Assembly: GCF_965641715.1 (NCBI RefSeq) | Contig: NZ_OZ282453.1 | Reading direction: 5' to 3' (one strand) | Source: Escherichia coli | GTDB lineage: Bacteria > Pseudomonadota > Gammaproteobacteria > Enterobacterales > Enterobacteriaceae | DNA: 64,000 nt | The notes under the pieces: generated by a model | Seen by the model: only the letters and a program-made list of their open reading frames with translations | What the model was told of the DNA's origin: nothing | Databases searched by the model: none | Shown here: positions 34,893 to 51,781 of the stretch, piece by piece | How positions within the stretch are numbered: the stretch's first letter is position 1 | How the letters are laid out: every line of letters starts with the position of its first letter | Made by a program: the position numbers and the translations under genes

Positions 34893-35135
34893 GGTGTAAT
34901 CCTTGTGCAGACAAATTTCTTGTTACCTAAACGTAACAATACCATGACATTTCACCGTTGTCTGCTCTGAAAACCTCACCTCTTAGCTGGATTTACAATC
35001 AACGCATTGATTAGTTAGCTAATGTTGCTACTTCCTTCCCTGACTATTGATGATCTGAATGAATTGTCGCGGTAAAATAGCCCCGCCAGGGGTTTCCGGC
35101 ATGACGACAATTATCTGGAGGAGCCTGATAAAACA

Positions 35136-36167
35136 ATGATCGCTGAACTGTTTACAAATAATGCGCTTAATCTGGTCATTATTTTCGGTAGCTGCGCAGC
35201 ATTGATTCTGATGAGCTTTTGGTTTCGCCGCGGAAATCGTAAAAGAAAAGGCTTTTTATTCCATGCGGTGCAATTTTTAATCTACACCATAATTATCAGT
35301 GCTGTTGGTAGCATTATTAATTATGTTATAGAAAACTATAAACTCAAATTTATCACCCCAGGCGTTATCGATTTTATCTGTACGTCCCTGATTGCGGTTA
35401 TTCTGACGATTAAGCTATTTTTGCTGATTAATCAGTTTGAAAAACAGCAGATTAAAAAAGGCCGTGATATCACCAGTGCGCGGATTATGTCGCGTATTAT
35501 CAAAATCACCATTATTGTGGTGCTTGTTCTGCTTTATGGCGAACATTTCGGCATGAGCCTTTCTGGCTTGCTGACCTTTGGTGGTATTGGTGGTCTGGCT
35601 GTCGGTATGGCCGGTAAAGATATTCTGAGTAATTTCTTTTCCGGGATCATGCTCTATTTCGACCGTCCTTTCAGTATTGGCGACTGGATCCGTTCACCGG
35701 ACAGAAATATCGAAGGTACAGTAGCGGAAATTGGCTGGCGAATTACCAAAATTACGACCTTTGATAATCGTCCATTGTACGTACCGAACTCGCTGTTTTC
35801 GTCGATCAGCGTAGAAAACCCAGGACGAATGACCAACCGCCGCATTACCACGACCATTGGTTTACGTTATGAGGATGCGGCAAAAGTGGGCGTTATTGTC
35901 GAAGCCGTACGTGAGATGCTGAAAAATCACCCGGCCATCGACCAGCGACAAACCTTACTGGTTTATTTCAACCAGTTTGCTGACTCGTCATTGAATATTA
36001 TGGTTTATTGCTTTACCAAAACCACGGTATGGGCTGAGTGGCTTGCTGCACAGCAAGACGTTTATTTGAAGATTATCGATATTGTACAGTCACACGGCGC
36101 GGACTTTGCCTTCCCCAGCCAGACGCTGTATATGGATAACATTACACCGCCGGAACAGGGTCGCTAA
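35136..36167 (+). CDS. ynaI: MscS-family mechanosensitive channel YnaI
   Basis: 343 aa; N-terminal TM helices and MscS C-terminal domain. Confidence 0.9.
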
Positions 36168-36217
36168 ATCAGACATCACTGGCGTTATCCACAAGGGTAA
36201 CGCCAGTTCCCATCACA

Positions 36218-49748: not shown

Positions 49749-50654
49749 TCAGAACGAGTAATTTACGCCGACACCTGCATAATGGAATTTATCGCTGTCG
49801 CCTTCGTCGTGATCCTGCCACTCAAACGCGTATTCCAGCGAAACGGAAAGTCCGTTCTGGAAATCATAACCGTAAAATAAACCAACACGGTTAAAATCAT
49901 GGCCTTCACGTTCAATATCATCCTGCCAGTCCCAGTTACTCCAGCGATCCAGCCCAATGCGCGTATACGGCGTCACCGAGTGGTTGCCGAGCGTCAGCGG
50001 CAAATAGGCGCGAATTTCTTGCGTGGAAAACTCACCGTTATTGCGGCTGTCGTCCATATTGAAGCCGCGCTCGAGATAATAGTTCACTCGCAAAGCAACC
50101 GTTTCGTTGAAGGTATATTGCAGACCTGTTTCCGTTTCGACACGGGTATCAGCGTAACCGGTCGTGTTCAAATCGTTGGCAAATTTATACATCGACAACC
50201 AACCGTTGAAACGTAAATCGTCAGTCAGTTTCACATCCCAGTCTGGCGCGATTTTCCAGCGCTGCATATTCGCCGTGTCTTTACCCGGTTCATCAACGTA
50301 GTGATAACCATAATTACGGAAACCACCGGTCAAGCCGAAACTGAAATCATCGCTTTCGAGGAACTGATAATGCACCTCCAGCTCCGGGCGATCAAACCAC
50401 GTTCCACGTTTACCCGCGCTATAATCTACCGGCCCTTCCTGATAATAGGCCAGAGAAATTCTCCACGGCCCGTTGGCGGCATTAAAATAGACAGAAGGCT
50501 CCGCCAGCCCATCCATATCTTCGCCATAACCCTCGACGTTTTCTATTTCGTACATCGCGCCGATATTAAAGTGCCAGTCGTTCTTTTCCTCGGCCTGTGC
50601 GCAGGCCATTCCCGCACACATCACCAGTGCGGTACAGGGTAATAACTTTTTCAT
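49749..50654 (-). CDS. ompG: outer-membrane porin OmpG
   Basis: 301 aa; signal peptide MKKLLPCTALVMCAGMACA; C-terminal ...GVNYSF beta-barrel signature. Confidence 0.9.
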   Translation of the reverse strand: MKKLLPCTALVMCAGMACAQAEEKNDWHFNIGAMYEIENVEGYGEDMDGLAEPSVYFNAANGPWRISLAYYQEGPVDYSAGKRGTWFDRPELEVHYQFLESDDFSFGLTGGFRNYGYHYVDEPGKDTANMQRWKIAPDWDVKLTDDLRFNGWLSMYKFANDLNTTGYADTRVETETGLQYTFNETVALRVNYYLERGFNMDDSRNNGEFSTQEIRAYLPLTLGNHSVTPYTRIGLDRWSNWDWQDDIEREGHDFNRVGLFYGYDFQNGLSVSLEYAFEWQDHDEGDSDKFHYAGVGVNYSF

Positions 50655-50698
50655 TATTGTTCCTTGTATTATCCTGGGGGAATGCCTTCCCCCTGTAT

Positions 50699-51781
50699 TT
50701 AGCGAATTGCTATTTCCGTTTCTGCATCAAAGAAATGACATTTAGTCATATCAAAATGAATAGTGATATTTTCTCCTGCATGATAATCATTTAACGCACC
50801 AGCACGGACCACTAACTCGTGCCCCCCAACCGTGGTGTAGAGCATAAATTCCGCACCGGTTAATTCTGCCACGCTAATTTTGGCGGAAATGTTATTTTCC
50901 TCTTGCGCGTCCGGATGAATATCTTCCGGGCGTATTCCCATCACGATGGGCTTATGCAAACTTTCCTGTGTTTTCAGAACCGCTAATTTCTCTTCGGGAA
51001 TGGTTAATTTAAGCGTTTCCGTAACGAATTTATCGCCATCGATCGTGCCGCGAATAAAATTCATCGCTGGTGATCCAATAAATCCGGCAACAAACATATT
51101 CGCGGGTTGGTTATAAACGGTTTTCGGCGCACCCACTTGCTGAACAATCCCGTCTTTCATAATCACAATCCGCGTCGCCATGGTCATCGCTTCGGTCTGA
51201 TCGTGGGTCACGTAGATCATGGTGGTGTTCAGTTTCTGATGCAGCTTGCTGATCTCTGCGCGCATTTGTACGCGCAGCTTGGCATCAAGGTTAGAGAGCG
51301 GTTCATCCATTAAAAACACGCCCGCTTCGCGTACAATCGCCCGCCCGAGCGCCACTCGCTGACGTTGCCCGCCGGAAAGCGCGCCCGGCTTGCGTTTCAG
51401 GTACTCACGCAGGCCGAGAATTTGCGCCGCCCAGTTCACCCGCTCATCAATCACCTCTTTGGCGATTTTTTGCATCTTCAGGCCAAACGCCATGTTGTCG
51501 TAAACCGTCATATGCGGATACAACGCGTAGTTCTGGAACACCATCGCGATATTGCGTGCTTTGGCTGGAACGTCATTCATTCGTTTGCCGTCGATCAACA
51601 GATCGCCGCCGCTGATCTCCTCAAGCCCGGCAATCATGCGCAGGGTGGTCGATTTACCGCAGCCCGACGGGCCGACAAATACGATGAACTCTTTATCGGC
51701 AATTTCCAGGTTGAAGTCCTTCACCACATGCACCTGGTTATCGTAGATTTTTTGAATATGTTGTAACGAAAGCTGAGCCAT
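50699..51781 (-). CDS. ycjV: sugar ABC transporter ATP-binding protein YcjV (intact 360 aa)
   Basis: Walker A GPSGCGKST, ABC signature LSGGQRQR. Confidence 0.85.
   Translation of the reverse strand: MAQLSLQHIQKIYDNQVHVVKDFNLEIADKEFIVFVGPSGCGKSTTLRMIAGLEEISGGDLLIDGKRMNDVPAKARNIAMVFQNYALYPHMTVYDNMAFGLKMQKIAKEVIDERVNWAAQILGLREYLKRKPGALSGGQRQRVALGRAIVREAGVFLMDEPLSNLDAKLRVQMRAEISKLHQKLNTTMIYVTHDQTEAMTMATRIVIMKDGIVQQVGAPKTVYNQPANMFVAGFIGSPAMNFIRGTIDGDKFVTETLKLTIPEEKLAVLKTQESLHKPIVMGIRPEDIHPDAQEENNISAKISVAELTGAEFMLYTTVGGHELVVRAGALNDYHAGENITIHFDMTKCHFFDAETEIAIR

Follow-up and report, generated by a model that had tools for sequence, protein, structure and literature searches.

Differences between an Escherichia coli ynaJ-ycjV segment and K-12: an IS5-free spacer, an intact ycjV, two genes reduced to ymjD and ymjC in K-12, and an amber codon in ycjY

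Gene content and relation to MG1655

The window, a stretch of 64,000 nucleotides of an E. coli genome, was found by BLAST to be colinear between positions 31865 and 63998 with positions 1,368,601-1,400,392 of MG1655 (NC_000913.3) in reverse orientation, with a nucleotide identity of 97.6-99.5%; a narrower comparison, of 32257-56601 with MG1655 1376000-1400000, gave the same reverse colinearity. Genes run in the order ogt, fnr, uspE, ynaJ, ynaI, mppA, pgrR, ycjY, two extra genes, mpaA, ycjG and tpx, followed by tyrR, ycjF, ycjX, ycjW, ompG, ycjV, ycjU to ycjM and pspE-A (Table 1). For the MG1655 segment from ynaJ to ycjV (1,380,821-1,397,622) gene order and content otherwise agreed with the window at the same identity, and 28 of the 29 complete shared genes were of equal length and free of internal stop codons, the exception being ycjY. 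The differences on the K-12 side are an IS5 copy (IS5F), a -1 frameshift in ycjV and two deletions, here termed delta-1 and delta-2, of which ymjD and ymjC are the remnants, whereas the W203* mutation of ycjY is found in the window and not in K-12.

Table 1. Features of the window, with positions counted from its first nucleotide.
Feature	Position	Strand	Description
ynaJ	34635..34892	-	85 aa, protein identical to K-12
Unoccupied IS5 target TTAG (complement CTAA)	35015..35018	.	In the divergent ynaJ-ynaI intergenic region
ynaI	35136..36167	+	343 aa, mechanosensitive channel, protein identical to K-12
pgrR	38168..39067	-	LysR-type regulator, divergent from ycjY
ycjY	39205..40125	+	Alpha/beta hydrolase interrupted by amber TAG at 39811-39813 (W203*)
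Second alpha/beta hydrolase (hydrolase 2)	40125..41054	+	309 aa, ~40% identical to YcjY; full-length form of the 21-aa ymjD
delta-1, absent from K-12	40183..41074 (end approximate)	.	In-frame loss of hydrolase 2 codons ~20 to 307, plus an 11-bp indel
SDR gene	41075..41713	+	NAD(P)H-binding NmrA-like oxidoreductase, 212 aa; full-length form of the 60-aa ymjC
delta-2, absent from K-12	41214..41877	.	664 bp: 3' three quarters of the SDR gene and downstream spacer
ycjW	48640-49638	+	Intact
ompG	49749-50654	-	Intact
ycjV	50699..51781	-	Intact MalK-like ABC ATPase, 360 aa
G6 run in ycjV (C6 on the + strand)	50822..50827	-	G5 in K-12, a -1 frameshift
ycjU-T-S-R-Q-P-O-N-M	51795..62385	-	K-12 lengths, no internal stops

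An earlier note on this DNA had proposed that the strain differs from K-12 at three sites, the ynaI/ynaJ spacer, ymjC and ycjV, and had named alignment of the region with MG1655 as the check. This alignment bore out a difference at all three, and K-12 does not carry identical intact genes at these positions. All three K-12 features are already present in the reference annotation or published, and are known polymorphisms.

Population counts were taken over 5,426 complete E. coli genomes. At least 80% of the segment 35000-51781 was matched in 4,846 of these, with O157:H7 strains and strain D8 as best match (99.0%); taken segment by segment, the best matches reached 99.0-99.5% with the strain differing between segments. 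In O157:H7 (Sakai, EDL933) and D8 all of 35000-51781 was covered at 99.0% identity, and these strains likewise have ycjV intact and both hydrolase 2 and the SDR gene present, with no IS5 between ynaI and ynaJ. D8, like XJ34, has an intact ycjY with TGG at codon 203 where the window has TAG, and D8 carries abgT beside ogt while the window carries an MFS/HlyD/AraC module. An Rfam scan of 27000-52000 matched McaS alone, outside 35000-51781.

The IS5 target site and the ycj cluster

The ynaJ-ynaI intergenic region of the window is 243 bp long (34893-35135) and contains one TTAG, no insertion sequence and no transposase gene. The K-12 record places IS5F, 1,195 bp with insH4, between the divergent ynaI and ynaJ, with TTAG duplicated on both sides. 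The two BLAST segments that flank K-12 IS5F meet in the window with an overlap of 4 bp at 35015-35018, where the sequence reads GATTAGTTAG up to the junction and CTAATG beyond it, with a single TTAG. YTAR is the target consensus of IS5. The site is thus a 4-bp YTAR-type target that is single where empty, as in the window, and duplicated where occupied, as in K-12, and the claim of the earlier note that K-12 has an IS5 (insH) here and the window none agrees with both the annotation and the target copy number. In K-12 the element would have transposed into the YTAR-type TTAG with 4-bp duplication; by the coordinates of the K-12 record it divides the divergent promoter region approximately 120 bp from either start codon. 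The K-12 IS5/ynaJ junction was found in 342 of the 5,426 complete genomes, and among the matches listed 40 of 40 were K-12 laboratory derivatives; IS5F is essentially confined to the K-12 lineage. The ynaI/ynaJ copy is one of 11 IS5 copies catalogued in K-12 BW25113, and precise deletions of it are available (PMC11677980).

The ycjV gene of the window was found to encode a complete MalK-like ABC nucleotide-binding subunit. Its translation contains Walker A (GPSGCGKST), the signature motif (LSGGQRQR) and Walker B (VFLMDEPLS), as had been claimed together with its length, and the domains ABC_tran (PF00005, 110.5 bits), OB_MalK (PF17912, 54.9 bits) and TOBE_2 (PF08402, 39.8 bits) all scored above threshold, the last two forming the C-terminal OB/TOBE part. 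Window YcjV thereby has the three domains and all three motifs of MalK-type ATPases, while its substrate and its partnership with YcjNOP are predicted from gene context and literature; YcjV is predicted on that basis to be the ATPase energising YcjNOP sugar import. The sole indel relative to K-12 within ycjV is one additional G in the window, G6 versus G5. In K-12 the frame shifts at codon 319 and the protein ends ...VGGTS*, with the remaining 37 codons annotated as ymjB; both ycjV and ymjB are flagged as pseudogenes in the K-12 record, so that ycjV was correctly taken to be a pseudogene there. K-12 YcjV lacks its last ~41 residues, which make up the TOBE regulatory domain; the G would have been lost from the G6 run most simply by replication slippage.

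G6 was present in 4,608 of the 5,426 complete genomes and G5 in 371, which comprised K-12 derivatives and a few others, e.g., the bovine strains OkiPb01676 and OkiPb01710. G5 is essentially a feature of the K-12 lineage; its occurrence in a few non-K-12 genomes means either that the run mutates recurrently or that it tends to be misassembled. The papers found on ycjV treat the K-12 gene as a pseudogene integration site or YcjV as a predicted ATPase, and the G run is discussed in none of them.

The genes ycjM-N-O-P-Q-R-S-T-U, ompG and ycjW were of K-12 length with proper starts and stops, no internal stop and 0-20 amino acid changes. Including ycjV, 12 of 12 genes of the cluster (ycjM-ycjV, ompG, ycjW) were full length without frameshift or internal stop; further indels relative to K-12 were intergenic, or compensated one another within ycjM. 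Putative cognate sugars of the cluster are kojibiose, glucosylglycerate and glucosides. The intact reading frames mean that the genes could work and are not proof that they do. The suggestion that the strain keeps an ancestral, functional ycj locus therefore stood in part only. The 12 genes are intact and K-12 is derived at all three sites, but of these sites ycjV alone is part of the ycj cluster: the IS5 target lies in the ynaI/ynaJ unit, and ymjC in the PgrR-controlled ycjY-ymjD-ymjC-mpaA unit (PMC5934670). Moreover, ycjY is broken in the window, the truncated ymjC is shared by many other strains, and a working ycj locus is a prediction.

The ycjY, hydrolase 2 and SDR genes

The start codon of hydrolase 2 overlaps the stop codon of ycjY, and the SDR gene follows. 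Hydrolase 2 matched DLH with 36.1 bits (cutoff 21) and Abhydrolase_1 with 31.3 bits (cutoff 25.8). Both YcjY and hydrolase 2 passed the thresholds for DLH (PF01738, dienelactone-hydrolase-like) and Peptidase_S15, and they have the alpha/beta hydrolase fold, an invariant G-x-C-x-G nucleophile elbow, and an Asp and a His; a catalytic triad is proposed from their alignment. C117, D232 and H281 were invariant in both paralogues across three taxa. The SDR protein matched PF13460 with 183.8 bits over profile positions 1-184 of 184 and NmrA with 41 bits (cutoff 27), i.e., it has a complete Rossmann domain, and its N-terminal glycine-rich motif is GAGGQIA. The earlier note had placed an intact NmrA-like gene at 41051..41713. 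The open reading frame is real, but it begins with GTG, and RefSeq homologues ("SDR family oxidoreductase") start at the ATG at 41075.

K-12 carries remnants of both genes. ymjD (21 aa) consists of the start codon and first 58 bp (19 codons) of hydrolase 2 joined in frame to its last codons and stop, whereas in ymjC (60 aa) the opening 139 bp (46 codons) of the SDR gene run into sequence that in the window lies 664 bp further on. The K-12 record lists both as short CDSs, not flagged as pseudogenes. The notion of ymjC as a K-12 pseudogene accordingly holds insofar as it is a truncated remnant of the SDR gene, and fails as a description of the annotation. The junctions show homology of at most 1-2 nt. 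An illegitimate in-frame deletion of about 0.88 kb would have reduced hydrolase 2 to ymjD, and an illegitimate 664-bp deletion would have reduced the SDR gene to ymjC. Since ExPEC XM and K-12 share the same delta-1 boundaries, delta-1 is best explained as a single event that preceded delta-2, and because K-12 keeps remnants of both genes the window state is clearly older than that of K-12.

The full hydrolase 2 and SDR region, as in the window, was found in 1,280 of the 5,426 complete genomes (24%) and the K-12-type delta-2 junction in 2,309 (43%), leaving by subtraction about 1,650 (30%) with delta-1 only and an intact SDR gene. In the short ymjC and ymjD, K-12 retains the deletion scars of what were two real genes. 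Such scars are a common polymorphism across the species, with the window in the minority that keeps both genes. Both deletions are widespread and in all probability old, the probable order being the full state, delta-1, and delta-1 with delta-2.

The ycjY gene of the window is itself interrupted. Codon 203 is TGG in K-12 as it is in D8 and XJ34, and a G-to-A transition would have given the TAG. The predicted product of 202 aa keeps the nucleophile Cys117 and ends before D232 and H281. As the Asp and His it lacks do not vary between the two paralogues or among the three taxa compared, the truncated YcjY is very likely inactive. The 41-mer spanning the TAG was found in none of the 5,426 complete E. 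coli genomes. At least 23 further contigs in public collections (NCBI, Logan, ENA gut metagenomes) code for an identical 202-aa YcjY, and their ycjY DNA differed from the window by 2-3 nt versus 11-12 nt for other alleles. The allele was found both with the full region downstream of it and with the K-12-like deletions there, and the loci that carry it are only ~99% identical to the window. We considered that the TAG might be an assembly or read error; this was ruled out by the number of contigs with the same product and their shared haplotype. In K-12, ycjY-ymjDC-mpaA is described as an operon repressed and controlled by PgrR (PMC5934670). The amber codon, the presence of two K-12 deletions, the second hydrolase gene and the species-wide spread of the ymjC/ymjD deletions had been overlooked in the earlier note.

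Origin of the differences

Cassettes resembling this unit were sought among species-representative contigs with peptide patterns specific to hydrolase 2, a scan that by design retrieves species possessing hydrolase 2. A recurrent arrangement was found, with a divergent pgrR-like LysR gene, a YcjY-like gene and a hydrolase 2-like gene, and in some cases an SDR gene next to these. The cassette was present at 85-93% amino acid identity in Serratia, Citrobacter, Pseudocitrobacter and Shimwellia, and at 61-84% in many Rhizobiales and other Proteobacteria. The closest homologues of hydrolase 2 itself were those of Shimwellia, Citrobacter and Serratia (85-89%), with Rhizobiales at approximately 80%. 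Among the species representatives scanned no close hydrolase 2 homologue was found in other named Escherichia species; the sole Escherichia retrieved, Escherichia sp. E1V33, carries the deletions in K-12-like form. The two hydrolases form a conserved pair, the patchy distribution of which looks like horizontal transfer, and the cassette may have entered E. coli in this way. Calling the window state ancestral is well founded relative to K-12 and the other deleted states, since the remnants give the direction of change, and only relative to these.

We consider it highly probable (approximately 93%) that the window is a wild-type-like segment that lacks four K-12 mutations and has an ycjY amber codon of its own, with the lesions distributed and ordered as proposed above. 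An alternative is that the window lineage gained hydrolase 2 and the complete SDR gene by horizontal insertion, K-12 then representing the original state. The scattering of pgrR-ycjY-hydrolase 2 over Enterobacterales and Alphaproteobacteria (72-93% amino acid identity), the occurrence of the full region in just 24% of the complete E. coli genomes and the K-12-like state of Escherichia sp. E1V33 all fit such a gain. However, this explanation is largely refuted by the structure of the remnants: both K-12 and ExPEC XM keep the start, first 19 codons, last codons and stop of hydrolase 2 in an in-frame fusion, K-12 keeps 46 SDR codons joined to unrelated downstream sequence, and gene fragments of this type are deletion scars, not insertion sites. 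Furthermore pgrR and ycjY, the remaining members of the cassette, are found in K-12 as well. We regard an insertion as very improbable.

We give slightly less credence still to the differences being artefacts of sequencing or assembly, in either the window or the reference, for example a homopolymer miscount in ycjV or a base error at the ycjY TAG. In ycjV just one base of a homopolymer differs, and such runs are classic sites of error, and the TAG is absent from the complete genomes; yet 4,608 independent genomes have the G6 run while the 371 with G5 belong mainly to the K-12 lineage, and the exact 202-aa YcjY recurs on contigs that share the window ycjY haplotype.

On the reading of the window as a wild-type-like segment, the ycjY-hydrolase 2-SDR unit is decaying in both K-12 and the window, independently and by different routes. 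K-12 is atypical in that its transporter ATPase gene ycjV is frameshifted and that IS5 sits in the promoter region of ynaI/ynaJ, and therefore work in K-12 on the ycj pathway or on ynaI/ynaJ regulation may misrepresent wild E. coli. Beyond such bookkeeping the significance is small. A mildly useful addition is that ycjY and its neighbouring hydrolase are paired in distant bacteria, and that different members are inactivated in different E. coli lineages. It is conceivable, though we hold it at somewhat less than even odds, that pgrR-ycjY-hydrolase 2(-SDR) is a horizontally circulating functional module in which the two paralogous Cys-type hydrolases cooperate, and that E. coli has been losing it piecemeal, with hydrolase 2 and the SDR gene deleted in K-12 and ycjY interrupted by an amber codon in the window lineage. 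Were this the case, studies of YcjY in K-12 would address the orphaned half of a two-enzyme system.

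Alleles of ycjV, ycjY and the second hydrolase

The run of five G residues that shifts the frame of ycjV in K-12, where the window has six, was also found in two non-K-12 genomes, the bovine E. coli strains OkiPb01676 and OkiPb01710 (genomes of 5.2-5.3 Mb). In these, either slippage has recurred in the run or the assemblies contain homopolymer errors.

In the window ycjY is cut to 202 aa by an amber stop at codon 203 (39811-39813). At least 23 further public contigs carry the same allele and haplotype; none of the 5,426 complete RefSeq E. coli genomes has the allele. Downstream of the amber allele both backgrounds occur, i.e., the full one, with the second alpha/beta hydrolase (a YcjY paralogue) and the SDR gene kept, and the K-12-like deleted one. 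The second hydrolase ends at a TGA (41052-41054; 309 aa) in the window and in strain D8. A single G/T SNP makes it one codon longer in strain XJ34 (310 aa), where it ends GGA TAA.

Distribution of the hydrolase cassette

A cassette of the divergent LysR gene pgrR, ycjY and the paralogous hydrolase, followed in some loci by the SDR gene, was found in the window (38168-41713) and in contigs scanned with the second hydrolase (loci L005-L040). Amino-acid identity is 85-93% in Serratia, Citrobacter, Shimwellia and Pseudocitrobacter and 72-84% across many Rhizobiales, and this conservation suggests that the two-hydrolase module spread horizontally.

The Rac-like prophage and the abg region

A Rac-like prophage adjoins ttcA (approximately 10500-21800). 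Identity to K-12 Rac ranges from 82 to 96% between segments of the prophage (ydaU/V/W, recE and racC regions), which makes it a diverged relative and not the K-12 element itself.

The K-12 abgRABT operon, for p-aminobenzoyl-glutamate utilisation, is absent from 27842-31864 except for short end fragments. The three-gene arrangement found there also occurs in 1,316 of the 5,426 complete genomes. McaS is retained beside the deletion, in a stretch that shares only about 81% identity with K-12.

Features of the abg region
Feature	Coordinates	Strand	Remark
DHA2-MFS	28026-29540		between smrA and mcaS
HlyD-family	29537-30568		between smrA and mcaS
AraC-family	30662-31477		between smrA and mcaS
McaS sRNA	31548-31643	+	intact; Rfam RF00115, 112.8 bits
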